Assembly: GCA_045539625.1 (NCBI GenBank)
Contig: JAZQFS010000125.1
Coordinates: 1-62,182, forward strand
Direction: 5' to 3'
Length of the DNA stretch: 62,182 bases
Source of the DNA: Eubacteriales bacterium
Lineage (GTDB): Bacteria; Bacillota; Clostridia; Oscillospirales; CAG-382
Of this stretch, positions 3,323 through 32,581 are shown one piece after another; position 1 is the first letter of the stretch, and each line of letters opens with the position of its first letter. The translations under genes and the position numbers were made by a program. The notes beneath the pieces were generated by a model. That model saw only the letters and a program-made list of their open reading frames with translations. It was not told the origin of the DNA and ran no database searches.

Positions 3323-5269
3323 ATGAAAAGAGTAATAGCATTGCTGATGGCAATGATTATGACGTTTTCATCAATGCCGTTGATATAAGCAGCATCACCA
3401 TGGGAAACAGAACTGAACTATGACTTAACGAGTGATGGAAAGCATATAGTAACGGTGCCAACAGGGACAGAGATAACTGTAGAATTCAGAATAGAGAACC
3501 CTGATGGCGAAGAATTCACGATGTATAACGCAGAAAATCAGATTTCATATGACCATACTTTTTTGGAATATATGGGAGATGAGAATACAGGAAAAATAAG
3601 CTGTTCAGACATATATGAAAGAACGTATTCTCACGGCGAACATAGAGTATTTGTGATAAGTTCATCAAAAAGAAACTGTCAACCTTCACAGTTGGTGGCG
3701 AGAATAAAGTTCAAGGTGATAGCGGAATCAGGTTCTACAACTTTGATTAGTAAGTCAATGGTTGGTTATGGAGTCGGATATGAGGCTTTTGAAATTGTGA
3801 CCGAAGACCTCACCGTCATCATCGGTGACGACGATAAAGAATCATGTGATATTGTTTATAATAATAAAGGAATATTATATAAAAAGGTTGTGGCAATTGT
3901 AAATGAAGAATATGTGATTCTATCGGCACTTCCGGCTCCTGAAGGATATGTGTTTGACGGCTGGTCTTACAACGGTAACATATATAAGCTCGGTGATAAA
4001 TTCATTCCTGACGGAGATACTACATTTGAAGCTGTTTGGAAAGAGAATAAACCTAAATTCACCCTCACCTTCAACACCAACGGCGGTTCAGAATTAAACC
4101 CCGTAAAAGCAGAGAAGGGAATAAAAATCGACCTTTCCGATTACACCCCCACACGTAACGGCTACACCTTTAAGGGCTGGTTCCTCAATAGCCTGCTTAC
4201 CAATGAGGTGAAGGAAATAACCCTTACCGAAGATACCACCGTTTACGCTAAGTGGGAAAAGAAGGAATCAGGCGGCGGTGGCGGCGGAGGAGGCGGCGGT
4301 GATACCGTCAAATTCGAAATCACCTTCGATACAAATGGCGGAGAAAAGATGGACTCCATCGTAGCTCCCGAAAATTTCGTTGTTGACCTTTCGCAGTATG
4401 TTCCCAAGAAGGACGGCTTTAAGTTTGATGGCTGGTATACCGATAAGAACCTTACAAAGGCTGTAGATAAACTTAAGTTTACTGATGAAATCACACTTTA
4501 TGCTAAGTGGATTGAGGTTGAAGACGGCGATGAAGACGATAAGAAGGACGATAAGAACGATGATAAGACACAAGGCAAAAATAATAAGCCTGCAATTCTT
4601 ACCGATGTTCATTTCGCTTATATCGTAGGCCGTGAGGACGGATATATCAGACCTAAGTTCAATCTTACCCGTGCGGAGGCAGCTACTATTTTCTTCCGTC
4701 TGCTTAATGACGATGTAAGAGATAAGGCAGTTACAACTGAAAATGAGTTTGATGACGTAAATGACGGTAATTGGTTTAATACTGCTGTTTCCACTCTCGC
4801 AAATCTTGAAATTATCAACGGTAGAACTGCAACAACCTTTGATCCCAATGCACCTATAACACGTGCAGAGCTTACAACAATTGTAGCAAGAATGTCCGAC
4901 GCTAAGTATGAAGGTGAAAACCTTTTTGACGATATTGACGGACATTGGGCTGAAGATTATATCAATACTGCCGCAAGTGTTAAGTGGATTGAGGGCGACG
5001 GTGACGGTAAGTTCAGACCTAATGATAATATTACAAGAGCCGAGGTTATGACGCTGGTTAACAGAGTGCTCGGAAGACAGCCCGAAAGTAAGGACGACTT
5101 GCTCGCAGGTATGACAAAGTGGCCTGATAATGCTGATGAAAAGGCTCGGTATTACCTTGCAATTCAGGAAGCAACCAATAGCCATGAATATGAGCTTAAG
5201 GCTGACGGTGTTCATGAAAGCTGGACAAAGCTTACACAAAACCCCGATTGGTCTAAGTACGAAAACTGA
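3323..5269 (+). pseudogene. Cell-surface anchor protein: signal peptide, cohesin-like domain, three Listeria-Bacteroides (InlB B-type) repeats, poly-Gly linker, SLH domains; in-frame TAA at 3386-3388
   Basis: SD AGAAAGGAG then ATG 3323, in frame with ORF 3455..5269, reads MKRVIALLMAMIMTFSSMPLI*AASP. Repeats of type TFNTNGG...PTRNGYTFKGW...TVYAKW. SLH motifs LTRAEAATIFFR, ITRAELTTIVAR, ITRAEVMTLVNR. Confidence 0.75.
4271..4300 (+). repeat. GGN trinucleotide run encoding a poly-Gly linker
   Basis: ggcggcggtggcggcggaggaggcggcggt = 10 Gly. Confidence 0.9.
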
Positions 5270-13730: not shown

Positions 13731-14820
13731 TTGCCATACCCCCGTCATCTACCTGTGCATCAATAACTACCTTGTTGGATTCTGTCTTGTGCATAATGTG
13801 AATGTCCTCGGGAGTGAGGCTCATACCGATAAAGGCACCGGGCTCTGCGGACTTTGTGGAGTGAATCTTCCACTTTGTGCCGAAGCAGTCAACAATAATT
13901 TCGTAGTGAACGCCCTTGAAGGTAACTGTCTCAACGGTGCCGTCGATGGTGTTTTCACCGGGAGGTCCGAATTTTATGTCTTCGGGACGGATAACAACGT
14001 CAACGGGAGTCATCTTGCCAAAGCCCTTGTCCACACAGACAAAGCGGTTTCCTGCAAACTCAACGTCAAAGTCGTCGTGCATAAGTCCCGATACAATGTT
14101 GCTCTCGCCAATAAACTTTGCAACAAAGGCATTGACAGGCTCGTTGTAGATGTCCTGAGGAGTACCGATCTGGTCGATAACGCCGCCGTTCATAACAACA
14201 ATTCTGTCGCTCATTGTAAGAGCTTCTTCCTGGTCGTGGGTAACATATATAAAAGTAATTCCAAGCTGCTGCTGAATCTTTTTAAGCTCAATCTGCATTT
14301 CTTTTCTCAGCTGTAAGTCAAGTGCACCCAGGGGCTCGTCAAGAAGCAGCATTCTCGGGTGATTAATCAAAGCACGTGCAATAGCCACTCGCTGCTGCTG
14401 ACCGCCCGAAAGGTAGTCAACACGCTTTGCCCCGTAGTTTTTGAGGTTAACCATTTCAAGCATTTCCATAACACGCTTGTGTACCTCGTTGTCGGGAGTC
14501 TTTTTAAGACGCAGACCGAAGGCTATGTTTTCGTATACGTTTAAATGTTGGAAAAGTGCATATTTCTGGAAAACAGTGTTTACCTGTCTTTTGTACGGCG
14601 GCACCTTGTTTATAAGCTTGCCGTCAAAATACACATTTCCCTCATTAGGCTCAATAAAACCTGCAATTATTCGCAGAGTTGTGGTTTTACCGCATCCCGA
14701 GGGACCAAGTAAAGTAATAAATTCCTTGTCGTGAATGTCAAGGTTGATTCCTTTCAGAATCTTTTCATCGTCGTATTTAACTACGAGATTTTCCAATTTT
14801 ACAATCACACTTTTGTCCAA
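13711..14820 (-). CDS. potA: Polyamine ABC transporter ATPase
   Basis: [32 protein letters not shown]-like C-terminus; TTG 14820 is 8 nt after GGAGG. Confidence 0.95.
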
Positions 14821-14828
14821 TCCTAACA

Positions 14829-14940
14829 CCTCCGTACCGTGTTGCTGTGCGGTACATTTTCTGCTGTATGATTACAGCTTGCTACGGAAACCCGTCTTTT
14901 GCAACATCAGGATTAAGACGAATTTGCACCCGTAACAAAT
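14829..14940 (-). ncRNA. Structured 5' leader of potABCD, candidate cis-regulatory RNA/riboswitch
   Basis: Four helices, complementary loops (UGUUGC/GCAACA) and an alternative anti-SD pairing; see findings. Confidence 0.55.
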
Positions 14941-14947
14941 CACGATA

Positions 14948-14976
14948 ATAATACTTATTTTGTCGAAAAAAATCTA
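14948..14976 (-). promoter_or_regulatory. Putative sigmaA promoter of the pot operon
   Basis: TAGATT-17 bp-TATTAT, placing +1 near 14940. Confidence 0.5.
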
Positions 14977-15070
14977 CTGCTTAACGATAAATAAAATGTG
15001 AATAATATTAACAATTTTCAAAATAAATCTTATGTTTAGTCATTTTTGGGCATTATACATCGTTATATGC

Positions 15071-15104
15071 AAAAAAAAGAGCCGCACCTTTTAAGATGCA
15101 GCTC
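15071..15104 (-). terminator. Intrinsic terminator after carB
   Basis: gagctgcatctt-aa-aaggtgcggctc then T8 on minus strand. Confidence 0.85.
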
Positions 15105-15127
15105 CCAATATTGTTGGGTATATATAC

Positions 15128-18100
15128 TTAAATCACAATTTCGCCCGTGAAGGTGATTTCGGCATTACCTGAAAGGAATACGCCCTCGTCTGTGTATCTT
15201 ACAATAAGGTCGCCGCCCTTTAGCTTTACGGTAATGTCTGTGTTCTTTTTGCAGTAGCCGCAAAGACAAGCCGCAACCGCCGCCGCACATGCACCTGTAC
15301 CGCACGCCATTGTTTCGCCGTTGCCACGCTCCCAAACACGCATCTTGAGAGTGTTTTCGTTGAGCACCTTTACAAACTCGGTGTTCACTCTTTCGGGGAA
15401 TAATTCGTGGCTTTCAAACATAGGACCTATTGTTGATACGTCTAAGTTTTCAAGGCTTTCGTCAGCACCGAAGAATACAACGCAGTGAGGGTTACCTATG
15501 GACACGCAGGTGATTCTGTAAGGTCTGTAGCCAACGTGAATGGGGAACGCCACAACCTTTTCGCCGGGAAGCGTCACGGGAATGTTTTCGGGATTGAGAA
15601 TTACCTTGCCCATATCAACACATGCAGACTGAACAACGCCCTGCTTAACCTCAAGAGCAACCTTCTTTACGCCCACGGGAGTTTCTATTGAGATGTCAGT
15701 TTTGTCAACCATGCCGTTGTCGTAGAGATACTTACCTACACATCTCAATGCGTTGCCGCTCATCATACCCGGTGTGCCGTCCTTGTTGTAGATAGTCATC
15801 TTAGCATCGGCAACCTTGGATTTTCTGATAAGAACAACACCGTCTCCGCCGATACCGAAGTGTCTGTCGGACAGCATTACGGCAAGTCCCTCGGGATTGT
15901 TGATTTTCTGCTTAAAGCAGTTAAAGTAAATGTAGTCATTTCCGCAGCCCTGCATCTTTGTAAACTGAAGCTTTTCTTTTTCGCTTCTCATATCGTTGAT
16001 GTTTACAAGCTCTGTAGAAACTGAGGTGTATCTTGATGTTAAGCTGTCTGCAACTGCGTGAGCCGTGTCTATGGCAGTAAGACAGGGGATACTTCTTTCA
16101 ATAGCCTTACGTCTTAAAATTACACTGTTTCTTGTGGGGATTCTGCCGTGGTCGCTTGTTGAAATAACGTAGTCAACCGCACCTTTGTCCATAAGAGCGA
16201 GCCTGTCTTCGCTGTTTTCCACGATTTCCACGGGAATGTCGGCGTTCTGGATAACCTTGCCCGTTCCGTCGGAGGCATAAATCTTAAAGCCGTTTTCGTG
16301 GAACTTTTCGGCAACGTCAACAATTTCCAGCTTGTCGCTGTTTCTTACCGTGATAAGAACTCCGCCCTTGGTGTGATTCATCTTGTAGCCTGCTGCAATA
16401 AGACCTTTACAGATAGCTTCCTTGATGGTGCTTGCAATACCTAAAACTTCACCTGTGGATTTCATTTCGGGACCGAGCATACTGTCAACACCGTGGAGCT
16501 TTTCAAAGGAGAATACAGGCACCTTTACGGCAACATAGGGCGAATCGGGATAAATGCCCGTTCCGAAGCCCATGCTTTCAAGGCTTTCGGTGTTTTCAGG
16601 CTCATTTTCCTTGCCAATCATTGTTCTTGTCGCAAGGTCAACCATAGGTATGCCTGTTACTTTGCTGATGTAAGGAATTGTTCTTGAAGAACGGGGATTA
16701 ACTTCAATTACATAAAGCTGTTCGTTGTTGATGAGGTACTGAATGTTTACAAGACCTCTTGTTTCAAGAGCAACTGCAAGCTTCTTTGTGCAGTCAAGCA
16801 CTTCTTCACGCATCTTGTCGCTGATACGCTTTGCAGGGTATATGGCAATTGAGTCGCCTGAGTGTACGCCTGTACGTTCAACGTGCTCCATAATACCGGG
16901 AATAAGAATGTCCTTGCCGTCGCAAATGGCGTCAACCTCAATTTCAAGTCCCATAAGATACTTGTCGATAAGAATGGGGTTCTTGTCGGTGTGGGTAAGG
17001 ATTATTTTCATATATTCCTTGATGTCATCGGGATTCTGAGCGATGATCATATTCTGACCGCCGAGAACATATGAAGGACGCATAAGAACGGGATAGCCGA
17101 TTTTGTCAGCAACCGACAGCGCTTCTTCTTCGGTAAATACCGTACAGCCCACGGGACGCTTGATGTTAAGCTTTTCAAGAAGAGCATCAAATATCTTTCT
17201 GTCTTCCGCCGCATCAATGCTTGAAGCACCCGTACCGAGAATCTTTATTCCGTTTTTGTCAAGGAAGCTTGTAAGCTTGATAGCTGTCTGACCGCCGAAA
17301 GCAACAACCGCACCGTAAGGCTTTTCGGTCTGTATAATGCTCATTACGTCCTCGTCTGTAAGAGGCTCAAAGTAAAGTCTGTCAGCCGTGTCAAAGTCTG
17401 TTGAAACGGTTTCGGGATTGTTGTTTACGATTACAACCTCGTAGCCAAGCTTTTTAAGTGAACGTACACAGTGAACGGAAGCATAGTCAAATTCGATACC
17501 CTGACCGATTCTGATAGGACCTGAGCCGAATACGATAATTGTTTTCTTTCTGTCCTTTTTGTTTGCAAGGAATTCGGCAGCTTCGTTTTCTTCGTCGAAG
17601 GTGGAGTAGAAGTAAGGTGTTTCTGCTGAGTATTCCGCAGCACAGGTGTCAACCATCTTGAAGGAAGCATACTTTTTGTTCTGTATCTTGCAGCCCGAAA
17701 GGTTTTCAATGTGCTTGTCGGGGAAGCCCATACGCTTTGCCGCCATATAAAGCTCGTCGGTGAGAACACCCTTCTGAAGCTCACGCTCCATACCGAGAAT
17801 GTTTGTAAGCTTTGTAAGGAAGAATTTGTCTATTTTGGTAAGCTCGTGAATGAATTCAATACTCTTGCCTCTCTTTAAGAATTCGTAAATGATAAAGAGA
17901 CGCTCGTCGGTACATTCTTTGAGACTTGCAAGCAAGTCCTCGTCGGAAACATCTGCAAGATTGTCCTGATTGAGGCTCATGTGCTTGATTTCGGCACCTC
18001 TTACAGCCTTCATAAGAGCTTCTTCAAAGCACTGACCGATGGACATAACCTCGCCCGTTGCCTTCATCTGTGTGCCCAGCTTTCTCTTTGCATAAACAAA

Positions 18101-19192
18101 CTTGTCAAAGGGCCACTTGGGGAACTTTACAACTACATAGTCGATTGTAGGCTCAAAGCAGGCAACGGTTTTGCCCGTTACCGCATTCTGAATTTCGTCA
18201 AGAGTGTAGCCTATTGCAATTTTTGTAGCAACCTTTGCGATTGGGTAGCCTGTTGCCTTTGAAGCAAGTGCAGATGAACGGGAAACTCTGGGGTTAACCT
18301 CAATTACCGCATATTCAAAGGAGTCGGGCTTGAGAGCAAACTGACAGTTACAGCCGCCTTCAACCTCAAGAGCGTTAACAATCTTGAGAGCCGCTTTTCT
18401 CAGCATTGAATATTCCTTGCTTGAGAGGGTAAGAGCGGGAGCTGCAACTATGGAGTCGCCTGTGTGAATACCTACAGGGTCAAAGTTTTCCATGGAGCAA
18501 ACGGTAATGGAATTGCCCTTGCTGTCACGGATAACCTCAAATTCGATTTCCTTCCAGCCCGAAATACACTTTTCAACAAGAATCTGTGTAATGGGGGAAA
18601 GTCGAAGACCGTTTGTACCGATTTCGGTAAGCTCTTCAACGTTTTCCGCAATACCGCCGCCTGTACCGCCCAAAGTAAATGCGGGACGTACAATTACGGG
18701 GTAGCCGATTTCTTCTGCAAAGGCAAGAGCGCTGTCAAGATCGGTTACAACCTTTGAAGGGATAATAGGCTGGTCAATGGACTCCATGGTGTCCTTGAAC
18801 ATCTGTCTGTCCTCGGCCTTGTCAATTGTTTCGGGCTTTGCACCGAGAAGCTTTACGCCCATCTTGTCAAGGAAGCCGTCCTTTGCAAGCTGCATTGAAA
18901 GGGTAAGACCTGTCTGTCCGCCAAGGGAGGAAAGAAGGCTGTCGGGACGTTCCTTTTCTATAATTCTCTTAACTGTTTCAAGGTTGAGAGGCTCGATGTA
19001 AATTTTGTCGGCCATTATGTTGTCTGTCATAATGGTAGCGGGGTTGGAGTTGACGAGGATAACCTCAAGACCTGCTTCCTTAAGAGCACGGCAAGCCTGA
19101 GTTCCCGCATAGTCAAACTCAGCCGCCTGACCGATAACGATAGGACCTGAGCCTATCACCATAACACGCTTTAATTCTTTATTTAACGGCAT
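15128..19192 (-). CDS. carB: Carbamoyl-phosphate synthetase large subunit fused to a C-terminal diaminopimelate epimerase (DapF)-like domain
   Basis: GSGPIVIGQAAEFDY, two ATP-grasp units, MGS domain, then FTKMQGCGNDY...GNPHCV...RVWERGNGETMACGTG. Confidence 0.95.
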   Translation of the reverse strand: MPLNKELKRVMVIGSGPIVIGQAAEFDYAGTQACRALKEAGLEVILVNSNPATIMTDNIMADKIYIEPLNLETVKRIIEKERPDSLLSSLGGQTGLTLSMQLAKDGFLDKMGVKLLGAKPETIDKAEDRQMFKDTMESIDQPIIPSKVVTDLDSALAFAEEIGYPVIVRPAFTLGGTGGGIAENVEELTEIGTNGLRLSPITQILVEKCISGWKEIEFEVIRDSKGNSITVCSMENFDPVGIHTGDSIVAAPALTLSSKEYSMLRKAALKIVNALEVEGGCNCQFALKPDSFEYAVIEVNPRVSRSSALASKATGYPIAKVATKIAIGYTLDEIQNAVTGKTVACFEPTIDYVVVKFPKWPFDKFVYAKRKLGTQMKATGEVMSIGQCFEEALMKAVRGAEIKHMSLNQDNLADVSDEDLLASLKECTDERLFIIYEFLKRGKSIEFIHELTKIDKFFLTKLTNILGMERELQKGVLTDELYMAAKRMGFPDKHIENLSGCKIQNKKYASFKMVDTCAAEYSAETPYFYSTFDEENEAAEFLANKKDRKKTIIVFGSGPIRIGQGIEFDYASVHCVRSLKKLGYEVVIVNNNPETVSTDFDTADRLYFEPLTDEDVMSIIQTEKPYGAVVAFGGQTAIKLTSFLDKNGIKILGTGASSIDAAEDRKIFDALLEKLNIKRPVGCTVFTEEEALSVADKIGYPVLMRPSYVLGGQNMIIAQNPDDIKEYMKIILTHTDKNPILIDKYLMGLEIEVDAICDGKDILIPGIMEHVERTGVHSGDSIAIYPAKRISDKMREEVLDCTKKLAVALETRGLVNIQYLINNEQLYVIEVNPRSSRTIPYISKVTGIPMVDLATRTMIGKENEPENTESLESMGFGTGIYPDSPYVAVKVPVFSFEKLHGVDSMLGPEMKSTGEVLGIASTIKEAICKGLIAAGYKMNHTKGGVLITVRNSDKLEIVDVAEKFHENGFKIYASDGTGKVIQNADIPVEIVENSEDRLALMDKGAVDYVISTSDHGRIPTRNSVILRRKAIERSIPCLTAIDTAHAVADSLTSRYTSVSTELVNINDMRSEKEKLQFTKMQGCGNDYIYFNCFKQKINNPEGLAVMLSDRHFGIGGDGVVLIRKSKVADAKMTIYNKDGTPGMMSGNALRCVGKYLYDNGMVDKTDISIETPVGVKKVALEVKQGVVQSACVDMGKVILNPENIPVTLPGEKVVAFPIHVGYRPYRITCVSIGNPHCVVFFGADESLENLDVSTIGPMFESHELFPERVNTEFVKVLNENTLKMRVWERGNGETMACGTGACAAAVAACLCGYCKKNTDITVKLKGGDLIVRYTDEGVFLSGNAEITFTGEIVI

Positions 19193-20267
19193 TGAAGTTT
19201 ACCTCCTTGACAGTATCGAGAAATTGTTCGTAAAGTGATTTTTCGCCTGTTGAAGACTCGGTTGTGTCGGGCCTGAACTGGCAAGTTATAACGGGCATAT
19301 CCGTGTACTTTAAGCCTTCGACGGTTTTGTCGTTGGCGTTTTCGTATGATATTACAGCACCCTTTGGCAGCTTGTCTGCACATACACAGTAGCCGTGATT
19401 CTGAGTGATGATGCTGAGAACTCCGCTTTGTGTGTTTTTGCAGGGACCGCTTGCACCTCTGTGTCCGTACTTGAGCTTGAAGGTGTCGCCGCCCTTTGCA
19501 AGAGCAATAAGAAGATGACCGAGACCCAGACCGAACATTGGCACATTCTTTTCGCAAAGCTTTGAGATTTCGGCGATTGCATCCTTGTTGTCCTTGGGAT
19601 TGCCGGGGCCGTCGGAAATAACTATTCCGTCAGGCTGTATTTCGAGTAAATCCTCAGCCTTGCTGTCGGCGGAAAATACGTAAACGTCGCAGTCAAGTGA
19701 GGCGAAGGTATCAATTACGCTCTTGCCTGTGCCGAAATCGTAAAGAGCAAGCTTTGTCTTTGACAGAGGATGAGTGTAAACCGCATTTTCAAGTCCGAGA
19801 GCCGATACGGGGTTTTCGCACTTGTGAGCCTTTATCTGCTTTATAAGTGAATCAATGTCCGAGGCTTCAGAGCAAATCATGGCGTTCATTGAGCCTTCTT
19901 CACGTAAAACTCTTGTGAGTGCTCTTGTGTCAATTCCGCATATTCCCACAACGCCGCTGTTTTTGAGGTATTCGTCAAGTGTGCCCTCGCATCTGAAGTT
20001 TGAAGGAGCGTCGCACATTTCTCTTACAACATAGCCTGCGACCGTTGCCTTTTCGCCTTCAAAGTCCTCGGCGATAACACCGTAGTTACCAATCATGGGG
20101 AAGGTCTGCACAACAATCTGACCGAAGTTGTTTTTGTCGGTAAGAGTTTCAAGATAACCCACCATACCTGTGTTGAATACAGCTTCGCCAAGGGCTGTGC
20201 CTTCCTTGCCGATGGAAGTGCCTTCAAAGACCTTTCCGTTTTCTAAAATCAAATAAGCTTTTGACAC
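19179..20267 (-). CDS. carA: Carbamoyl-phosphate synthetase small subunit, glutaminase triad degenerate
   Basis: AYLILENGKVFEG, FNTGMVGY, GIDTRALTR, QNHGY; FGLGLGHL and QFRPD replace FGICLGHQ and QFHPE; GTG 20267 after GGAGG. Confidence 0.93.
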   Translation of the reverse strand: MSKAYLILENGKVFEGTSIGKEGTALGEAVFNTGMVGYLETLTDKNNFGQIVVQTFPMIGNYGVIAEDFEGEKATVAGYVVREMCDAPSNFRCEGTLDEYLKNSGVVGICGIDTRALTRVLREEGSMNAMICSEASDIDSLIKQIKAHKCENPVSALGLENAVYTHPLSKTKLALYDFGTGKSVIDTFASLDCDVYVFSADSKAEDLLEIQPDGIVISDGPGNPKDNKDAIAEISKLCEKNVPMFGLGLGHLLIALAKGGDTFKLKYGHRGASGPCKNTQSGVLSIITQNHGYCVCADKLPKGAVISYENANDKTVEGLKYTDMPVITCQFRPDTTESSTGEKSLYEQFLDTVKEVNFNAVK

Positions 20268-20309
20268 GAATAATACCTCCAAATCTATAATAAACAAATA
20301 ATAAACTCT

Positions 20310-20341
20310 AAAAAAACAGGTGTCGGAAATACCAACACCTG
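20310..20341 (-). terminator. Attenuator-type terminator in the carA leader
   Basis: caggtgttgg-tattt-ccgacacctg followed by T7, 43 nt before the carA start. Confidence 0.85.
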
Positions 20342-20354
20342 AAAAAAGCAATAA

Positions 20355-20471
20355 CTATACCTGCATTATCTGAGAAACTGAGATAATGAGGCAATTTGTC
20401 ATGTTAGGTGAAAAAAGGGAATAGGACGCCGCAAAAGGGGTTACGCTTTGCTTGCACGACATCTTCATCAT
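20355..20471 (-). CDS. Putative 38-aa leader peptide (uORF) of carAB
   Basis: SD GAAAGGTGA, then MMKMSCKQSVTPFAASYSLFSPNMTNCLIISVSQIMQV*, between promoter and terminator. Confidence 0.5.
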   Translation of the reverse strand: MMKMSCKQSVTPFAASYSLFSPNMTNCLIISVSQIMQV

Positions 20472-20533
20472 AATAATCACCTTTCACATTTATTGAAAGA
20501 CGAACTTCAAAAAGCTCTGCTTTCTGAAAATAT

Positions 20534-20562
20534 ATTATACAATAATTTGCCGGTTTTGTCAA
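20534..20562 (-). promoter_or_regulatory. Consensus sigmaA promoter of carAB
   Basis: TTGACA-17 bp-TATAAT. Confidence 0.88.
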
Positions 20563-20722
20563 TACGTTTTTTTTATATTTCACGCCGATATTTTACAATA
20601 TTTTCACTCTGCTTTTATACAAGTTGACAAAAAGCAAAAAGTATCAAAAGAGTAAAAGACGGTACTTGAAATTCCGTGCTTAAAATGATACAATGTTATA
20701 AACACAAATCGAAAGGAAAAAT

Positions 20723-21067
20723 ATGATGGGATTTCTTGATAACCTTAAAAACAAACTGTCGCCCGTGTCAAAAAACGCAAAGCAGTCAAGAGCCATAGCC
20801 TCAAAGCTCAATGACAGCCACATAAAATACGCAAGCGACAAGACAGACGGCGAAGAAATCATAGTCGGCAGAAGCGGTCACGTAAACATTGTTGACGGAG
20901 ATTGCTTTGAGCTGGTGTTCGGCGTTGAGAGCATCTTTAAATTCAAAATAGACGAAATGACCATATGGGAATTTATGAGCCTTGACGGAGCAACCGTCGG
21001 CGGCACCGACCTTAATACAGGCAAAGAAAAGACCTTTATCCTGTACTACGATAAGCACCTGACATAA
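20723..21067 (+). CDS. Hypothetical protein
   Basis: SD GAAAGGA; upstream TTGAAA-17-TACAAT promoter. Confidence 0.75.
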   Translation: MMGFLDNLKNKLSPVSKNAKQSRAIASKLNDSHIKYASDKTDGEEIIVGRSGHVNIVDGDCFELVFGVESIFKFKIDEMTIWEFMSLDGATVGGTDLNTGKEKTFILYYDKHLT

Positions 21068-21070
21068 TAA

Positions 21071-21613
21071 TTATTTGCAGAAATTTTCGATGTAGTTGTC
21101 AATAGCCGATTCGATAATCTTTACGGCCTCCTCGCGTCCCTTTACCTCGTCAACGGCAGTTGTTTTGTGCTCAAGGTTCTTGTAAACCGTGAAAAAGTGC
21201 TTCATCTCGTCGAAGATGTGCATGGGAAGCTGGTCAATATCAGTGTACATATTGTAGTTTGGATCATTGAAGGGAATGGCGATAATCTTTTCGTCGTTTC
21301 TGCCGTTGTCAACCATGGTGATAACGCCGATGGGGTAGGCACGTACAAGCGTCAGCGGCTCAAGAGGCTCAGCACACACAAGAAGGACGTCCAACGGGTC
21401 TCCGTCATCACCGTAGGTGCGGGGAATAAAGCCGCAGTTTGCAGGATAGTGGGTTGATGTATAAAGAATTCTGTCCAGCATAATGTAGCCTGTTTCCTTG
21501 TCAAGCTCGTACTTCTTTTTGCTGTTTTTGGATATTTCGATAACGCAGATAAAATCCTCACTGCTTATTCTTTTTGGTGAAATGTCATGCCAGATGTTTG
21601 ACACATTAATCAT
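21071..21613 (-). CDS. ppa: Family I inorganic pyrophosphatase
   Basis: KYELDKE, DGDPLDV, DEKIIA, HFFTVYK; start may be GTG 21604. Confidence 0.93.
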   Translation of the reverse strand: MINVSNIWHDISPKRISSEDFICVIEISKNSKKKYELDKETGYIMLDRILYTSTHYPANCGFIPRTYGDDGDPLDVLLVCAEPLEPLTLVRAYPIGVITMVDNGRNDEKIIAIPFNDPNYNMYTDIDQLPMHIFDEMKHFFTVYKNLEHKTTAVDEVKGREEAVKIIESAIDNYIENFCK

Positions 21614-21682
21614 TCCTTTCTGTAGTTGATTGAATTATAGCATAATTCGGTGAAAAATTCAATACAATTTTACTTAATTTGC

Positions 21683-21711
21683 TTGACAGAGGCATATTTA
21701 TATAATAAAAT
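21683..21711 (+). promoter_or_regulatory. sigmaA promoter of rubrerythrin
   Basis: TTGACA-17 bp-TAAAAT. Confidence 0.7.
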
Positions 21712-21739
21712 GTAATTAAAATAATTGGAGGTTAGGACT

Positions 21740-22399
21740 ATGACTAAGTACAAGTGCAAAGTCTGCGGCGAAGTTTTTGAAGCAGCAGACGGACAGGAAG
21801 CAGAATGCCCCAAGTGCAAAATGAAGGGCGATAAGCTTGAAAAAATACAGGAGGAAAAGAAAATGAACAAGTACGCAGGTACACAGACAGAAAAGAATCT
21901 TGAAGCCGCATTTGCTGGCGAATCACAGGCAAGAAACAAGTATACATACTTTGCATCAGTTGCAAAGAAGGAAGGCTATGAGCAGATATCAGCCCTATTC
22001 CTTAAGACAGCCGATAACGAAAAGGAACACGCAAAGTTGTGGTTCAAGGAATTGGAAGGTATTGGCGATACAGCGGCAAATCTTCTTGAAGCGGCAAACG
22101 GCGAAAACTATGAATGGACAGATATGTACGAAGGCTTTGCAAAGACAGCAGACGAAGAAGGTTTTCACGACCTTGCAAGAAAGTTCAGACTCGTAGCTGC
22201 TGTCGAAAAGCATCACGAGGAAAGATACCGTGCACTTTTAAAGAACGTTGAAACAGCACAGGTATTTGAAAAGAGCGAGGTTAAGGTTTGGGAGTGCCGT
22301 AACTGCGGACACATTATTGTCGGCACAAAGGCTCCCGAGGTTTGTCCCACCTGTGCTCATCCCAAGAGCTACTTTGAAGTTCACGCCGAAAACTATTAA
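21740..22399 (+). CDS. rbr: Rubrerythrin with an extra N-terminal CxxC..CxxC metal-ribbon domain
   Basis: [23 protein letters not shown]-terminal CRNCG..CPTC; N-terminal CKVCG..CPKC. Confidence 0.93.
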
Positions 22400-23524: not shown

Positions 23525-26278
23525 TTATGCCTTTGTCGCAATAATAACCCTGATTTTTCCGCCCTTTTCGGGAGTTTTGTCGTAGTAAGCTTCGTATGTA
23601 AAATCGCCGATAATGGCATCGTTTAGAGAAATGCTTTTATATGTGCCATCTTTATACTGGAATACTACAACATTGTCCCATATGGGAAATTCGTTGTCTT
23701 CTACATCGTAGACTGTTGTTGCAGTTATAAAATCAAGGTCTTCTACAGCAAACAGGTTTCGGAAATTGCTTACAGCACCGTCTGTATATTGAATTATTAC
23801 CGGGCCTGCTGTGATTTTTTTGCCGGTAAAACTCAGTTTTTTCGTAGTGTGTTCGGTAACGTAAGTTACATGAGATACAGTTGGAGAATCGTCACTATCT
23901 TCTTTTGAGGCTTTTGAAACAGTAGATATAACGCCGTACTCATTCAAATCTCCCGTGAAGTTGTTGAGAATAAGCTCGCTTAAATTGTTGTTTTCGTCAA
24001 AGGAGCAGTACAGAATAAGCTTTGAATAAAGGAAAGCCTCAATGTCAAGCTTTGCACCGTCAAAACGTGAGGGGTAAATCTTTGCAACTGTGGTATCGTT
24101 TATCTCTATAATTTTGCAGTCATCGGCAAAGCGACCTTCGTTGATGGCGTTGATTACAGTGGCAAGAGTGTTTCTGCCCAAGGTTGTTGACTGCTCGGTA
24201 AGCTTCACCGTATCTCCCACGGCAACTCTTACAATGTCGCCGATACCCAAATTCTTGTTGAGGTGCTCATAGGTGTAGGATTTTGTGCTTGTGTCGGTGA
24301 CAGTTACGTATTCTGCGGTATATGTGTCGCCGTCGCTGTCGGTGAACTGCTTTTCTCCACGGCCTGTGACAACGCCGTAGTAAACTCGAGAAACGCTGTC
24401 AACACTCACAACACCTGCAACCTTTCCGTTCATATCAAGCAAAAGCGTTGCCTTGTCTCCCACACGGAAAGCACCGAAGGTGGATAAATCGTAGGAAGCC
24501 TGTGATGTTTCAACGCCGTAGGTGTTGCCCGAAAGGGTGACGGAGGTAGGCGATGACAGGGGAGCTATTGCCTCAATTGTACCGCTTACCGTGTCTCTGT
24601 AAATCCATACCGTGTTAAGTACGGGCGAGAAGTAGTAAACGTCATAGGGTGCAATTTCCTTAGCCTGAATCACAGTGTTGCTCTTGTATACGGTAGCCGA
24701 AGCAAGGTCAAGCGTCAGCTTATCCATGCTGCCGTCCGTTCCTACAATGTACGGACCTTTAAGCGAGCCTGAAACGACCTCGGAATAAGTGGCGTCGTTG
24801 TCCTTCTTTCCGATTTCGTCGGGATTTGCCGACAGTATGCTTATAACCTCGTCGTTCTTGCCGAGGATAAGCTTTACATAATCGTCCGCCTTAAACTGAC
24901 CGTAGGTGGAAACGGCAATTTTTGCTTCATCCGTTGCAAGGGAATAGGTTTTGTTTGCTATGCTGACCGTCGACGAAGAAAGTGATGAAATGTTGCCTGC
25001 AACGGTTTCTCTGTAAACCCAGACGCTGTTAAAGGGCTTTGCATAGTAAAGAACATCAGCGACAGCGGGAGTGTAGCTGTCTGCCGGAACACCGTTTATG
25101 AAAATTTCTGCCGTGTCTGTGTCAAAGGGAATACTGTTCTTCCATAAAGCAATTTCGCTTTCACTTGCTATGTAAAGCGGAAGACTTATAACAGCATCAA
25201 TCATGGATATGTAGGAGGCGTTGTCGGAGTTGTCGGTGATTTTGCTCTTGTCGCCGTCAACTATGTCTGCAACCTCATCGTTAAGACCTAACAGCAAGGT
25301 CACAAAGCTGTGCTTTTCGCTGTATTTTCCGCCGAGAGAAAGCTTGCTTCTTGCTTCGTTTGTTCTGACGGAATAGGTCTTGTTTCCCGTGAGAGTCACA
25401 GCGGAATTTCCGCTTTTTGAGGTGATAATACCTGTTGCGGTTTTTCTGAAGGCGAAAACAGAATTGATTTTTTCGCTGAAATAAATGACGTCGCCTTCCT
25501 TTATCTGCGAAAGGGAAGAGGAAACGCTGTTAAGATTGTACTGCGTTTTGCTGTCAGAACTAAAGCCCGTAATTTCGTCAACGGTTTTGCCCTGTGTGAG
25601 AATAAAGGGACCTTCCAGCTCTTTTTGCAGCAGGGCGTTGTAGTCGATTTTGCATTCGCTGTCTGTTTCGTAGCCGAGGGTTGTGCAGTAAACGGCTCCG
25701 CTTTTGGTTTTTGCAGATAACGTATTGTAAAGCAGAATCATACATTCTTCACGTGTAAGAAGCTGACCTTTAACTGCGGATATGTTTTCATCAAGCTCCT
25801 TTTCGTGGTACTTTTCAAGCTGTGATGAGGGGTATGTACCCTTGAAATCACCTGTTGTGTAGCCGAGAAGACGCAGAACAATGGTTGCCGCTTCCTCTAA
25901 GGTCACATAGCCCGAGGGCTTGAAGGTGCCGTCAAGATAGCCGTTGACAAGTCCTGCCTCAATGGCAGTTGATATAAAGCCTGCACCCCAGAAGTCCGCC
26001 TTGACGTCGGGAAACAGGGAATAGCTGACAACGCTGTTTTTTGCCTTGTCCTTGTTAACAGAGGCGCTTACAGCCATCTTTACAAATTCGGCACGGGTTA
26101 CGTTGCTTGAAAAATTCATATTGCCGTTTTCGTCGCCTGAGGCAATTTCAAGAATTTTTACGGTGTTTATTACTTCGCTGTCGGCAACTGAGGGCACTTC
26201 TTCTGCCAAAGTGGAAAAGGAGACGCAGCAAAGTATGAGAGCAATGCTTAAAATCAGCTTGCAAAAATTTCTTTTCAT
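23525..26278 (-). CDS. Secreted SLH-domain surface protein with three internal repeats
   Basis: Signal peptide; VTRAEFVKM, GYLDGTFKPSGYVTLEEA, LTREEC; repeats DVIYFS..SVFAFR, DVLYYA..SVWVYR, DVYYFS..TVWIYR. Confidence 0.85.
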   Translation of the reverse strand: MKRNFCKLILSIALILCCVSFSTLAEEVPSVADSEVINTVKILEIASGDENGNMNFSSNVTRAEFVKMAVSASVNKDKAKNSVVSYSLFPDVKADFWGAGFISTAIEAGLVNGYLDGTFKPSGYVTLEEAATIVLRLLGYTTGDFKGTYPSSQLEKYHEKELDENISAVKGQLLTREECMILLYNTLSAKTKSGAVYCTTLGYETDSECKIDYNALLQKELEGPFILTQGKTVDEITGFSSDSKTQYNLNSVSSSLSQIKEGDVIYFSEKINSVFAFRKTATGIITSKSGNSAVTLTGNKTYSVRTNEARSKLSLGGKYSEKHSFVTLLLGLNDEVADIVDGDKSKITDNSDNASYISMIDAVISLPLYIASESEIALWKNSIPFDTDTAEIFINGVPADSYTPAVADVLYYAKPFNSVWVYRETVAGNISSLSSSTVSIANKTYSLATDEAKIAVSTYGQFKADDYVKLILGKNDEVISILSANPDEIGKKDNDATYSEVVSGSLKGPYIVGTDGSMDKLTLDLASATVYKSNTVIQAKEIAPYDVYYFSPVLNTVWIYRDTVSGTIEAIAPLSSPTSVTLSGNTYGVETSQASYDLSTFGAFRVGDKATLLLDMNGKVAGVVSVDSVSRVYYGVVTGRGEKQFTDSDGDTYTAEYVTVTDTSTKSYTYEHLNKNLGIGDIVRVAVGDTVKLTEQSTTLGRNTLATVINAINEGRFADDCKIIEINDTTVAKIYPSRFDGAKLDIEAFLYSKLILYCSFDENNNLSELILNNFTGDLNEYGVISTVSKASKEDSDDSPTVSHVTYVTEHTTKKLSFTGKKITAGPVIIQYTDGAVSNFRNLFAVEDLDFITATTVYDVEDNEFPIWDNVVVFQYKDGTYKSISLNDAIIGDFTYEAYYDKTPEKGGKIRVIIATKA

Positions 26279-26305
26279 ATATATTAAATCCTTTCTTTGC
26301 ACGTA

Positions 26306-27499
26306 TCAGTCGTGCCTTAAAGCTTCAATAGGATTAAGCTTTGCAGCTTTGTTGGCAGGTAAGTATCCGAACAAAACTCCGATTGCCACCGATATTCCAA
26401 AGGATACACCAATTGAAGTAAGTGTTGGAATTGCCACCATTTCAAGAGAGGCAAGAAGCGTTTTTGTAACAAGTGATGAAACGGCAATACCAAGACCTAT
26501 GCCAAGCAATCCTCCAAGCGCACTTGTGGTTGCAGCCTCTATAACAAACTGCATTCTTATGTGCCTGCCTTTTGCTCCGAGGGCTTTTCTGATGCCGATT
26601 TCACGTGTTCTTTCCGTTACCGATACAAGCATTATGTTCATAATACCAATGCCGCCGACAACAAGGGAAATACCTGCAATTGCCGCAAGCACAAGCACCA
26701 TGGTGTCCATCATTTCGTTCATAATGTCAAGCACCTCCGTAAGACTTGTTACGGAGTAATAATCGTCGCTTCTGAAGGTCTCGTACAGCCTTGCATCAAT
26801 AAGGTCGATACAGCCTTCAACATCGTCTTCGCTTTTTGCAACAAAGGTAAATGTGCCGATTGTGCTTGAGCGAGACAGATACCTTGCTGCCGTGGAGTAG
26901 GGAACATATACAAAGTTGTCAATTCCCGTTTCGCTTGTTTTGTCGTTCTGTTCTTCAACAGCACCGATGATAAGATACCTGTCGCCGTTTATTTTCAAGT
27001 ATTTGCCAACAGCATTTCCGCCGTATACCGTATGGTTGTAGAATGCGCCTACAATACATACTTTTTTGTTCTGCAGAATGTCAACATAACAGATGTTGCT
27101 GCCGTTTTCAAGAGTGTAGTCCTTGATGCCGAGATACTCCTCGCTGATGCCCGTGATGGCTGGGGTGTACAGCTCGTTGTCGGCGCCTCTTACCTGTGCT
27201 CTTGTTGTGACGGTGGGGGACATATAGTTGAAAACGTCCTTGTTTTCATCGTAAAGCTCATACATATCCTCAACACTTACCGTTCTTGATGAGCCTCTGC
27301 CCACAATGTTTACCGAAATGTTTGTAGTACCCATGCTGGCAAAGCTGTCATTCATAAATACCGTCATACCGTTGCCGAGAGCCATAATGATTATAACCGC
27401 CGCAACGCCTATGATAATACCAAGCATTGTAAGGAAGGAACGCATTTTGCTTGTGGACAGGCTTTTGAATGCCATTATAAAGCATTGAAAAACATTCAT
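26306..27499 (-). CDS. MacB/YknZ-family ABC permease
   Basis: RSFLTMLGIIIGV, GGIGIMNIMLVSVTERTREIGIRKALGA, LNPIEALR. Confidence 0.93.
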   Translation of the reverse strand: MNVFQCFIMAFKSLSTSKMRSFLTMLGIIIGVAAVIIIMALGNGMTVFMNDSFASMGTTNISVNIVGRGSSRTVSVEDMYELYDENKDVFNYMSPTVTTRAQVRGADNELYTPAITGISEEYLGIKDYTLENGSNICYVDILQNKKVCIVGAFYNHTVYGGNAVGKYLKINGDRYLIIGAVEEQNDKTSETGIDNFVYVPYSTAARYLSRSSTIGTFTFVAKSEDDVEGCIDLIDARLYETFRSDDYYSVTSLTEVLDIMNEMMDTMVLVLAAIAGISLVVGGIGIMNIMLVSVTERTREIGIRKALGAKGRHIRMQFVIEAATTSALGGLLGIGLGIAVSSLVTKTLLASLEMVAIPTLTSIGVSFGISVAIGVLFGYLPANKAAKLNPIEALRHD

Positions 27500-28251
27500 G
27501 ACTTGCTCTCTCCTTTCTTTTTCAAAAGGGGATCGTCGTCAAATGCTACGTGCGCCTGAACGGTAGCACCGTCGCCGTCAGAGGGACCGTCGTATACCAC
27601 ACAGCCGTCATGAAGACGAACAATTCTCTTTGCGGAATGTGCGATTGAATTGTCGTGGGTGATAAGAACTATAGTGTTTCCTTCGGCGTTGAGCTTCTGT
27701 AAAAATTCCAGCACCTCTCTGCCTGTGCGTGAGTCAAGAGCACCTGTCGGCTCGTCTGCAAGAATAACCGAAGGATTTCCTGCAAGAGCACGGGCAATGG
27801 AAACTCTTTGCTGCTGACCGCCTGATAGCTGAGACGGATAGTTTTTCTCTTTACCTGAAAGACCTACTCTTACAAGCGATTCCTTTGCTCTTTCGTGACG
27901 CTCGTCGGCATCAACGCCTGCATATAACAGAGGAAGCTCTACATTTTCCTGAACTGTAAGTTTTGGAATTAGGTTGTATTGCTGAAAAATAAAGCCAAGC
28001 ATTTTGTTTCTTATTTCCGCAAGCTCGTCATCCTCCATGGTTGATACGTCTATTCCGTTGAGAAGATACGTGCCTTGTGTCGGAACGTCAAGACAGCCGA
28101 TAATGTTCATAAGTGTTGACTTTCCGCAGCCCGACTGACCGACAATTGCAACAAATTCGCCCTTGTCGATGTGCAGGTTAACTCCGTTTGAAGCATAGGT
28201 GGTGGTGTCGCCGTTTACATAAATCTTGTAAATGTCTTTAAGTGTAATCAA
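27496..28251 (-). CDS. MacB/LolD/YknY-family ABC ATPase
   Basis: [28 protein letters not shown]. Confidence 0.93.
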   Translation of the reverse strand: MITLKDIYKIYVNGDTTTYASNGVNLHIDKGEFVAIVGQSGCGKSTLMNIIGCLDVPTQGTYLLNGIDVSTMEDDELAEIRNKMLGFIFQQYNLIPKLTVQENVELPLLYAGVDADERHERAKESLVRVGLSGKEKNYPSQLSGGQQQRVSIARALAGNPSVILADEPTGALDSRTGREVLEFLQKLNAEGNTIVLITHDNSIAHSAKRIVRLHDGCVVYDGPSDGDGATVQAHVAFDDDPLLKKKGESKS

Positions 28252-28268
28252 AGCATTTCACCCCGTAA

Positions 28269-30503
28269 CTATCTCGGAATACCGCCGCCCATATTGCCAC
28301 CCATGTTTCTGCCGCCTGCCATACCGCCGCCGTAGCCGCCCGGCATTCCGCCCATACCCATAGCGGGCATTCCGCCCATGCCCATCATACCGAATATGGA
28401 GCTTTGTGTTCTCTGGGTATTTTCAATAATGATAACATCACCGACTTCAAGTCCGTCAATAATTTCGATGTATTCTTCATCGCTGATACCCACGCTTACT
28501 CTTACTTCCTCATATTCCGAATCGATGGGAGCCGTTCCGTATGCGTTGACTCTTGATCCTTGAGGACGAGCGGCTTGTGCACTGTCTGTGGGTGCTTGTG
28601 CTTGCTCTGAATTGAAGGACGGTGCACCGGACATATTTTCCGAGGCGTTGATGTTGGGCTTTGTCTGTGAAACATCTTCCTTTGCAGTTTTGTCATCTGC
28701 CGAGTCAGCGCTGTCGGCTTTTGTGTTCTTAAGCACCTTTACCGTGTTTCCTCTGCCGATTGCCGTAACGGGAACGGCAAGAATGTTTTCACGCTTTTCG
28801 ACGATTATTTCAGCATCGATGTTCATGCCGGGACGAAGCATTTTCTTTTCGTTTCTCACTTCCACCGTCATAGTGCCGAAATTGTCGTCAAAGGAGTAAA
28901 CGCTTGTGCCTGTAATGTAAGAGCTTTCGGTATAATTGTTGAGCTTTTCATCGCCTATGTATAAGGAATAACCGCCGTCATAGGATACCTTCTTTATAAC
29001 AGTTCCGTCGCTGTAGGTGTAAACAGATGCGCCTTGGGCAAGAGAGGTGTCTTCAAGAACGTATGTATTTTCCGTGCTTGTCATACCCGTCTTGTAAACC
29101 TTGCTGACAGTGCCGTCCTCAAGAACGGTTCTTTTTGATAAATCCTCAACGTTTTCAATTGTCACCTCTACGGGATAAACGGTAGTGCCGCTTGTGGTTG
29201 TGCCTTGAATACTTACATTGGTGACAACGCCCGTGTAGGTCTGACCTTCACGTGAGTCGCTGGTGATAATAACCTGCTGACCTTCCACAAGACTGTCAAT
29301 GTCAAGCTCATCAATGCTCATTGTGAATTTAAGCGCCGACATATCGTAAATCACGGCAAGTGAGGAGGAATTGTTTCCGCCGCCGCCTCCGATTGTGTCG
29401 CCCGCCTTGTAATTCTTTGAAATCACAGTACCCGAAATGGGGGAGGTGATGTTGTAGTTGTCGTAAGCATCAAGTGCGTCCTCAAGATTTGTTTCGGCGT
29501 TTTCCACATTAATTTCAAGGGATTCAATCTGGTTGTTGAGTGAGGTGCTTTCAAGTCTTAAAAGAATACTTCCTTTGTTTATTCTCTGACCTTCCTGAAA
29601 ATATATTTGGGAAACATCGCCTGCAATCTCGGAGTACACCGAGCCCTTGTCGCTGTAGTCGAATGAGCCGTGAGAGGTACATACAGCGTCACCTACGGTG
29701 GCAACACCCAAGGTTGAAGGAGTAATAGCACCCGTGTTGTTTACGGCAATGCTTACCTTTCGTGTTGTTGCACCTATTGAGCTTACCGCTGTAACGGGAC
29801 TTATTTCGTCAACAACCCCTTCAAGAACTTCGGGAGAGTCGATAAACGAAACAAAAGCCTTGTCGCCGATATTCATTTGCTTTGTATCAACGTCAAGAAA
29901 AGGCACTTCAAGAATCATTGTACTGCTGTCAATAATATCTGCAATAAGTGTGCCTGCTCCTATTTCGTCGCCTACCTCAACGTGCAGCTTCTCAATAACG
30001 CCCGTAACCTCAGAGTCAACATTGAGCTTTTCAAGCTTTTCGTATGCTTCGTCAAGATTTGTCTTTGCGGTTTTAAGTGAGTTTCTTGCTTTTGTGACGT
30101 TGGAATCCAGAGAGTCCGATTCAATTTCGTATAAAAGCTGATCTTCTACAACCGTGTCGCCTTTGTTGAAATGGTCTGATAAAATCTCGCCGCTTACAAG
30201 TGCTGTTATTGTGTACTGTTCGTTAGGCTCAATTGTGCCCGTGCTTGTAAGCACTTTTGTGATGGTGCGGTATGCAGTCCGGTCGGTAAGAGCGTATGTG
30301 GTAAGGGTTGAGGCACTTGCTTCGTCCTTGCCCAAAAGCTTGTCAAACATACCTGCCTTGTACAGACCAAAAATTACAATTAATGCAACTATCACAATAA
30401 TTATAACGGTTTTAATTATCTTTTTCCTTTTCTTTTTATTGTAGGATTTTAAGGAATTTTGGCGGGACTGCTGCTTGTCTGCAGTCTCTTGGGTGTTGTT
30501 CAT
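28269..30503 (-). CDS. Membrane fusion/adaptor protein (MacA/YknX-like), unusually long
   Basis: N-terminal TM anchor, two lipoyl-hairpin sets, LRPGMN, VSVGISDEEYIEIIDGL, Gly/Met tail. Confidence 0.88.
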   Translation of the reverse strand: MNNTQETADKQQSRQNSLKSYNKKKRKKIIKTVIIIVIVALIVIFGLYKAGMFDKLLGKDEASASTLTTYALTDRTAYRTITKVLTSTGTIEPNEQYTITALVSGEILSDHFNKGDTVVEDQLLYEIESDSLDSNVTKARNSLKTAKTNLDEAYEKLEKLNVDSEVTGVIEKLHVEVGDEIGAGTLIADIIDSSTMILEVPFLDVDTKQMNIGDKAFVSFIDSPEVLEGVVDEISPVTAVSSIGATTRKVSIAVNNTGAITPSTLGVATVGDAVCTSHGSFDYSDKGSVYSEIAGDVSQIYFQEGQRINKGSILLRLESTSLNNQIESLEINVENAETNLEDALDAYDNYNITSPISGTVISKNYKAGDTIGGGGGNNSSSLAVIYDMSALKFTMSIDELDIDSLVEGQQVIITSDSREGQTYTGVVTNVSIQGTTTSGTTVYPVEVTIENVEDLSKRTVLEDGTVSKVYKTGMTSTENTYVLEDTSLAQGASVYTYSDGTVIKKVSYDGGYSLYIGDEKLNNYTESSYITGTSVYSFDDNFGTMTVEVRNEKKMLRPGMNIDAEIIVEKRENILAVPVTAIGRGNTVKVLKNTKADSADSADDKTAKEDVSQTKPNINASENMSGAPSFNSEQAQAPTDSAQAARPQGSRVNAYGTAPIDSEYEEVRVSVGISDEEYIEIIDGLEVGDVIIIENTQRTQSSIFGMMGMGGMPAMGMGGMPGGYGGGMAGGRNMGGNMGGGIPR

Positions 30504-30739
30504 AGAAAGCATCCTTTCACTCAATAAATTTACGGTAATTATGTTAGCAGTATTTTGTGAATTGGAAAAGTGTTTAATGTGATGGTAATATGTTTTTTTA
30601 AAGTAATTTTGTTTACAATTTCCCGATTTAAGGCAAAAAGGGTGATTGTTAAAAGATTATTTATAATTATGTGTAGATAATAACAGATAAATCTATTATA
30701 CTAACATAAGTTACGATAAAATGTACGGAGGTAGTATAA

Positions 30740-32553: not shown

Positions 32554-32581
32554 TATTCTCTATCCTTTCAAGTGTTATCGG

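Follow-up and report, generated by a model that had tools for sequence, protein, structure and literature searches.

How does a bacterium obtain carbamoyl phosphate when the glutaminase subunit of its only credible carbamoyl-phosphate synthetase (CPS) has lost the catalytic triad, and what is done by a DapF domain, attached to the other subunit, that has lost a catalytic cysteine? Both questions are raised by an operon in a 62,182-nucleotide stretch of DNA from a Eubacteriales bacterium (contig JAZQFS010000125.1; the whole stretch is called the window here), in which a promoter, a 260-nucleotide leader, a carA-like gene, a carB::dapF gene of 1354 codons and a terminator follow one another on the minus strand (Table 1). 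We consider it probable that this operon encodes an ammonia-dependent enzyme that is the sole CPS of the organism, with a structural CarA, a non-epimerising DapF domain and a leader attenuated through an upstream open reading frame (uORF).

The unusual residues are read directly from the codons, being GGT, AGG and GAC for the Gly, Arg and Asp of CarA, and AGC and TGC for the Ser and Cys of DapF. Seven further species of the genus have the same substitutions, and near-identical contigs across positions 15000-20361 were obtained from an independent DNA run, so that an assembly error does not account for them. Near-identical sequence also occurs in animal gut metagenomes, while an RNA run (X20) gave near-identical contigs of 181-225 nucleotides inside carB and none on the leader, and is uninformative on expression or termination. 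The three anomalies pointed out in an earlier sequence-only reading, namely the loss of the CarA triad, the loss of a DapF cysteine and a leader with uORF and terminator, are therefore real, as codons, alignments and leader comparison each attest, and the transcription unit that it delimited by a consensus promoter and a terminator also stands. The promoter is kept in all eight genomes of the triad-less clade and is absent from G002 and G007, two sister species in which the upstream region is coding.

Judged by sequence, the small subunit is a CarA homologue by descent and not a glutaminase. Its product matches PF00988 (166.9 bits), PF00117 (117.7 bits) and TIGR01368 (357.3 bits, cut-off 307.35), and thus has both the N-terminal CPSase small-chain domain and the class-I glutamine amidotransferase (GATase) fold. 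Where E. coli CarA chains have Cys269, His353 and Glu355, the alignment places Gly276, Arg360 and Asp362, numbered from the TTG start of the longest carA-like open reading frame (19179..20351), which is not the conserved start; the catalytic triad that goes with TIGR01368 is absent.

The genome of the window (G000) is a metagenome-assembled genome of 134 contigs, 97% complete, in which an absence means "not found". A second CarA was found neither there nor in the congener G005 (98% complete), a single CarA is likewise seen in the seven congeners carrying the same triad-less protein, and the other GATase match in G000 belongs to a C26-peptidase-like protein. The check for further carA or dapF copies that the earlier reading had called for thus returned a single CarA and, as the only DapF, the fused domain. 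The 3.8-kb contig C51 (L005:1-3769) holds a second carB with pyrK and pyrD behind it. This carB was considered as a second CPS and rejected, since the adjoining pyrK and pyrD duplicate those of the genome's own pyrC-pyrK-pyrD on C101, which has no carB, as in G005, G011 and G009; the most likely source of C51 is therefore a relative that has an orphan carB in its pyr operon and whose DNA was binned with this genome. Such orphans occur in four relatives without CarA or with a dead CarA only, in the order pyrC-carB-pyrK-pyrD-pyrF-pyrE and with no carA in the operon (L113, L114, L115 and L116, from G006, G015, G014 and G030, respectively). CarA was not found anywhere in G014 or G030, and these pyr-operon proteins look like orphan enzymes of the CarB2 type. 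CarB itself was found in 31 of 31 relatives.

An intact carA might nevertheless be missing from the assembly, so that a glutamine-dependent CPS persists; the division of G000 into 134 contigs and the break of C51 inside its carB gene would allow it. However, the C51 carB is of the orphan type that directly follows pyrC without carA in four relatives, and the seven congeners with the same CarA also show a single copy, which leaves this explanation extremely improbable. PyrB and ArgF of G000 score above their cut-offs, and no carbamate kinase above cut-off was found in this genome. As no other credible CPS is present and PyrB and ArgF need carbamoyl phosphate, the operon is its only credible source. 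With the triad gone and no alternative enzyme in sight, the ammonia dependence put forward by the earlier reading is supported by the comparison.

The large subunit combines an apparently complete CarB with an incomplete DapF. The CarB part scores 1412.9 bits against TIGR01369 (cut-off 1027) over model positions 3-1050, with both ATP-grasp halves and the MGS-like domain present, and residues 1076-1352 score 263.2 bits against TIGR00652 (cut-off 114.65), covering the two-domain epimerase fold (E 7.5e-72 with the best solved DapF chain). In the alignment to solved DapF chains, the first catalytic cysteine (Cys1) is replaced by Ser1145 and the second (Cys2) is retained as Cys1297, so that the catalytic pair is broken. 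A biosynthetic substrate for the domain is also hard to find: G000 has LysA and Ddh (meso-diaminopimelate [meso-DAP] dehydrogenase, 454 bits), and DapL, DapH and DapD, which would point to a supply of LL-DAP, were not found in it. All 14 genomes examined in the genus, G000 and 13 congeners, have Ddh.

The sister species show what the operon came from. G002 and G007 carry carA with Cys-His-Glu, carB::dapF with both catalytic cysteines (Cys/Cys) and dapL 50 nucleotides downstream; the window's CarA clade is sister to them with a support of 1.00 in the CarA tree, and argD, argF and purA lie upstream of the operon in G002. Among 80 loci from species-representative genomes, 45 of which have the fusion (25 Cys/Cys and 20 Cys-defective), dapL lies within the locus in 18 of 25 Cys/Cys cases versus none of 20 Cys-defective ones. 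It was not found in the window's clade, where pot genes take its place. The downstream potABCD thus occupies the place of dapL and stands behind the operon terminator, and gives no sign of the polyamine link suggested earlier. Several Cys/Cys operons are preceded by an ANTAR regulator and have pyrG inserted ahead of dapL, behind the fusion; the regulator suggests nitrogen-controlled antitermination. It lies directly 5' of carA at L043:6387-6968, L052:6335-6904 and L036:6274-6840, with a receiver domain in one of the three, and the pyrG insertion is seen in L033, L043 and L047. At L044:6962-8952 and L055:2392-4429, carA is directly followed by a standalone Cys/Cys dapF, and no carB was detected in the locus.

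Liu et al. (PMC8121099) provided genetic evidence that Bacteroides thetaiotaomicron uses Ddh and an orphan CarB2 at high ammonium, and DapLF and CarAB at low ammonium, with carAB and dapLF sharing a high-affinity-ammonium locus. The arrangement carA-carB::dapF-dapL matches the low-ammonium pair, of which the fusion is a Rosetta-stone record, and in the window's clade this low-ammonium set appears to have been dismantled.

How far these states extend was examined at several scales. A search with the DapF part alone against long proteins gave 6702 protein clusters among 7991 scored candidates, with named hits from Ruminococcus, Oscillospiraceae, Christensenellales and Eubacteriales; CarB-DapF fusions exist in thousands. 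The fusion is thus ancestral and widespread, and to speak of a new system, as the sequence-only reading did, was an overstatement. Within the best 120 fusion homologues, query included, Cys1 is kept in 102 and replaced by Ser in 11, Gly in 6 and Ala in 1. For CarA, a search of 1.84 billion representatives found Cys-His-Glu in 39 of the best 150, the triad-less share among these being inflated because fast-evolving sequences split into more 50% clusters. A tree of 243 CarA sequences, for which the triad columns had been masked, includes 121 triad-less ones; parsimony requires at least 28 changes, and Gly stands at the Cys269 position in 31 of 43 maximal triad-less clades; Gly is the favoured replacement at the old cysteine position. 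It is also the residue found there in a 611-residue CarA homologue with a 250-residue N-terminal extension (P0162, from a cluster of 16 members).

Across 401 genomes sampled evenly from the order, CarA was found at E<=1e-85 in 263 and not in the other 138. Among 36 of the lowest-scoring CarA loci examined in this sample, 30, from 29 genomes, are triad-less, and with G000, G005, G009 and G015 added, triad-less CarA is present in at least 33 of the 401 genomes. None of the triad-less carriers identified in the samples was a cultured organism. The 29 resolved triad-less loci comprise 15 with unfused CarB, 11 with a fused Cys-defective DapF and 3 with a fused Cys/Cys DapF, while an intact CarA stands beside a Cys1-less fusion in 18 of the 80 loci. 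The proposed co-occurrence of triad loss with the fusion therefore survives as a tendency and not as a strict link. That triad loss arises only on a Cys1-less fusion background, which at first held in four of four lineages, was likewise contradicted by the wider sample.

Within the clade, the ratio of nonsynonymous to synonymous divergence (dN/dS) is 0.02-0.06 for CarB, 0.03-0.10 for the DapF domain and 0.05-0.20 for CarA, values that are rough because dS is saturated (about 1-2). Relative to CarB, CarA divergence is 6.2 in triad-less versus 2.6 in intact forms, the triad-less ones evolving about 2.2 times faster at equal CarB divergence. For DapF, the ratio is 2.6-3.0 in the window's clade versus 1.7-1.8 in Cys/Cys domains, or about 1.5 times higher at equal divergence, and 1.56 in an old Cys1-less clade versus 1.49 in Cys/Cys fusions. 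Constraint on both altered parts is relaxed, not lost, and purifying selection acts on all parts of the operon. That CarA and the DapF domain are relics nearing loss, with no remaining role, would agree with this acceleration of both and with the many relatives that have dropped CarA altogether. It is very improbable all the same, given dN/dS of 0.03-0.20, invariant pocket residues and frames intact in the eight clade genomes, where a single TAG in the carA match of G010 lies upstream of the reading frame used.

The DapF domain itself points the same way. The eleven pocket positions that we take to be DAP contacts are kept in 18 of 18 Cys1-less homologues of the best 120, with one Thr-to-Ser exception, and in the Cys1-less fusions of an 18-genome set they vary only at the first, with Asp for Asn in two. 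Of 35 Cys-defective fusions, 28 have Asn immediately behind the ERG motif, as against none of 28 Cys/Cys fusions; among the 120 best homologues the figures are 11 of 18 and 5 of 102. A tree of 63 fusions requires at least 8 independent losses of a catalytic cysteine, nearly always Cys1 (G024, for example, is Gly/Cys), and Cys2 is retained in nearly all sequences. The cultured Sporobacter termitidis DSM 10068 has a Gly/Ser fusion together with an intact CarA. An invariant pocket together with a recurrent Ser-to-Asn change indicates that the domain is not simply decaying. Three possibilities may be considered for such Cys1-less domains, namely ligand binding, altered catalysis or an unseen analogue.

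According to the first, which was the idea of the earlier reading, the domain would be a sensor: meso-DAP, LL-DAP or something closely similar would bind without being turned over, and CPS activity or assembly would be adjusted to the state of the cell wall or of lysine. The domain directly follows the allosteric domain of CarB, pocket residues and Cys2 are kept in the Cys1-less fusions examined, the recurrent Asn adjoins the ligand-binding ERG motif, and in old Cys1-less clades the divergence relative to CarB is the same as in catalytic domains. A non-enzymatic partner role is also described for E. coli DapF with RppH (PMC4227774 and PMC6061791). However, a structure model of residues 930-1354 shows two confident domains (DapF mostly above 90 in predicted local distance difference test) joined by a low-confidence, flexible linker, with a predicted template-modelling score (pTM) of 0.66 and no packing of the two domains predicted with confidence; relative to CarB, the domain in the window's clade also evolves about 1.5 times faster than Cys/Cys domains of equal divergence, and the conserved residues could be structural. 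We hold a sensor to be a possibility, though an unlikely one.

The leader adds a regulatory layer that G002 and G007 lack. uORFs of 33-42 codons are present in all eight clade genomes, with stop codons placed from 1 nucleotide inside to 15 nucleotides before the terminator stem, whose sequence is nearly invariant. Their peptides differ among species, while the RNA stays pyrimidine-rich, the richest 36-nucleotide window of each containing 29-33 pyrimidines against a background 95th percentile of 29. Rfam gave no match at E<=1 across positions 14000-22000. The features by which a pyrBI-type leader can be recognised in sequence, that is a leader reading frame, a terminator within reach of the ribosome and a pyrimidine tract, coincide in eight of eight clade genomes, which bears out the uORF-plus-terminator leader predicted earlier. 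Translation-coupled attenuation is what this arrangement suggests, and it is probably sensitive to pyrimidine nucleotides; such sensitivity would suit an operon encoding the sole CPS. Upstream of L057:7001, in a sister lineage, a consensus-like promoter and a leader terminator form an attenuator of a different design.

From the observed sequence states, gene content, phylogenetic pattern and selection, we infer the following with regard to ammonia use, the role of the DapF domain and attenuation. CarB would make carbamoyl phosphate from bicarbonate, ATP and free ammonia, and CarA, no longer hydrolysing glutamine, would be retained as its structural partner. The DapF domain would descend from an ancestral carA-carB::dapF-dapL operon that served as a low-ammonium route to carbamoyl phosphate and meso-DAP. 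In the clade, Ddh would instead make meso-DAP directly from ammonia, so that both glutamine- and glutamate-dependent chemistries would have been given up. Left without a biosynthetic substrate here and with its pocket preserved, the domain would not be a relic in decay but a non-epimerising module that binds a ligand or carries out single-base chemistry. Expression would be set by a ribosome that, on completing the uORF, sits over the terminator stem, and the pyrimidine-rich uORF suggests coupling to the supply of uridine and cytidine triphosphates (UTP/CTP), as in E. coli pyrBI.

Several observations weigh against this ammonia-dependent, attenuated CPS. The absences in G000 are those of a fragmented assembly, and the dN/dS values suffer from the saturation of dS. 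In the leader, a compensatory change occurs in one pair only of the whole predicted structure, no conserved antiterminator was found in the clade leader alignment, and the related leader of L057, whose CarA is Gly/Met/Asn, has a terminator but no long uORF. The flexible linker and the pTM of 0.66 predict no fixed docking of the DapF domain on the allosteric domain. In one lineage Phe replaces Cys1 and the residue after ERG, at position 1291, is a Cys, which suggests a relocated catalytic residue. Moreover, 19 further genomes with Cys-defective fusions do not bear out a rule that would confine Cys1-less fusions to genomes having Ddh or a standalone DapF: 12 agree with it and seven (five Treponema, one Faecalibacterium-labelled and one Oscillospiraceae) do not. 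The sampled Treponema genomes with Ala/Cys fusions are metagenome-assembled. All seven have DapL and six also a LysA-like gene, so that it is not safe to equate loss of Cys1 with inactivity, and the Ala/Cys variant may still be a working epimerase in these genomes.

The same seven genomes, in which DapL occurs without Ddh and a Cys1-less fusion is the sole DapF homologue, favour a domain that has kept catalytic activity. It could epimerise DAP by means of another residue in place of the second base, or could use one base on a substrate resembling DAP. Most Ala/Cys variants bear an extra Cys at position 1108, the Phe variant has its own at 1291, and Cys2 is nearly always kept; proline-racemase relatives with a single cysteine act as dehydratases. 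In the window, however, Ser stands at both 1108 and 1145 and no route to LL-DAP was found in G000, the Gly or Ala at Cys1 of other lineages cannot act as a base, and the non-homologous epimerase DapF2, described in PMC13759103, was not searched for. We regard a catalytic role as improbable. Independently of these considerations, the Phe/Cys1291 fused DapF adjoins a CarA with Gly at the Cys position in L131, L136 and L145 (G148, G258 and G245).

Returning to the ammonia-dependent CPS with a non-epimerising DapF domain, a broader version can be put forward only tentatively, as we think it doubtful: Cys1-less, Asn-bearing DapF, as a new functional state that evolved repeatedly and acts as a DAP-sensing regulatory module or single-base enzyme, together with a Gly-for-Cys CarA selected for taking in ammonia, might define a class of bacterial ammonia-dependent CPS. 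Such a class would be widespread among Clostridia and Treponema of gut and rumen, and would tie the supply of carbamoyl phosphate to the status of cell-wall precursors.

The closest functional parallel is vertebrate CPS I, in which Ser294 replaces the catalytic Cys and ammonia is taken from solution (PMC4655335). Like the operon, CPS I keeps a folded glutaminase-like module without the catalytic Cys; unlike the operon enzyme, it consists of one polypeptide, depends on N-acetylglutamate and works in the urea cycle. The operon has two subunits, Gly instead of Ser, a replaced His and Glu, and a DapF domain, and serves pyrimidine and arginine synthesis. Compared with the CarB2/Ddh and CarAB/DapLF sets of B. 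thetaiotaomicron (PMC8121099), it shares the logic of ammonium-dependent and ammonium-independent routes and the carAB-dapLF linkage, but B. thetaiotaomicron keeps both sets as separate genes. In the operon, CarB and DapF form a single protein, and losing the triad, Cys1 and dapL has converted the low-ammonium set.

Domain order and the carA-carB gene order are those of E. coli CarAB (CPS II), and both subunits score above equivalog cut-offs; the absent triad, the C-terminal DapF domain and the different leader control set the operon apart. In the UTP-sensitive pyrBI attenuator of E. coli, a ribosome on the leader reading frame, which has a U/C-rich stretch before the terminator, can prevent the downstream intrinsic terminator from forming. 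The operon leader has the same three elements and may respond to nucleotides in a like manner, yet it shows no sequence similarity to pyrBI, and its uORF stops short of the hairpin, whereas that of pyrBI continues through it. With canonical DapF, the fused domain shares the fold and ligand-contact residues, and differs by Ser at Cys1, Asn after ERG, fusion to CarB and the lack of an LL-DAP source found in the genome.

Table 1. Coordinates of the operon and its leader elements in the window.
Feature	Position	Strand	Remarks
Sigma-70 type promoter	20534..20562	-	TTGACA-17-TATAAT, 12/12 consensus match
5' leader stem-loop	20507..20527	-	Conserved hairpin, columns 2-22 of leader alignment
Hairpin pairing the uORF ribosome-binding site (GAAAGGUGA)	20477..20503	-	Conserved hairpin
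uORF	20355..20471	-	38 codons + TAG, pyrimidine-rich core; ends 15 nt before leader terminator
Leader intrinsic terminator	20310..20341 (stem 20341..20317)	-	10-bp stem + T7; stem nearly invariant in 8/8 genomes
carA-like gene (CPS small subunit without Cys-His-Glu triad)	19179..20267	-	Conserved start GTG 20267, GGAGG at 20280-20276
carB::dapF	15128..19192	-	1354 aa; overlaps carA stop by 14 nt
CarB part of fusion	16019..19192	-	Two ATP-grasp halves, oligomerisation domain, MGS-like allosteric domain
DapF domain	15128..15967	-	Residues 1076-1354; Ser1145 at Cys1, Cys1297 retained, Asn1291 after ERG motif
Operon terminator	15077..15106	-	13-bp stem + T run

Elsewhere in the window, the minus strand encodes a MacB-like ABC transporter (ATPase and permease) with a 751-residue HlyD-like adaptor at 23525-30524, together with a 925-residue open reading frame that gave no NCBIfam match, and a complete rnfCDGEAB operon at 31708-36767. 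On the plus strand, a 781-residue open reading frame (341-2686) gave no family match, and a 604-residue protein (3455-5269) contains a Listeria-Bacteroides repeat and weakly matches a model for a leucine-rich-repeat protein.

Bacterial CPS is treated as glutamine-dependent in the review PMC6022934 and in PMC8121099, and our literature searches turned up no description of a CarB-DapF fusion or of a bacterial CarA that lacks the triad by nature, supplements and subscription journals lying outside the coverage. Since these proteins are named as ordinary CarA and CarB, metabolic models will wrongly assign glutamine dependence and DapF activity to them. The Cys1-less DapF domains form a natural series for the repurposing of an enzyme domain, and the fusion links CarAB to the DapL/DapF branch independently of the transposon genetics that did so in Bacteroides. 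If our reading is correct, ammonia-dependent carbamoyl-phosphate synthesis may be common in an order of gut and rumen bacteria, which would bear on the nitrogen economy of the gut.

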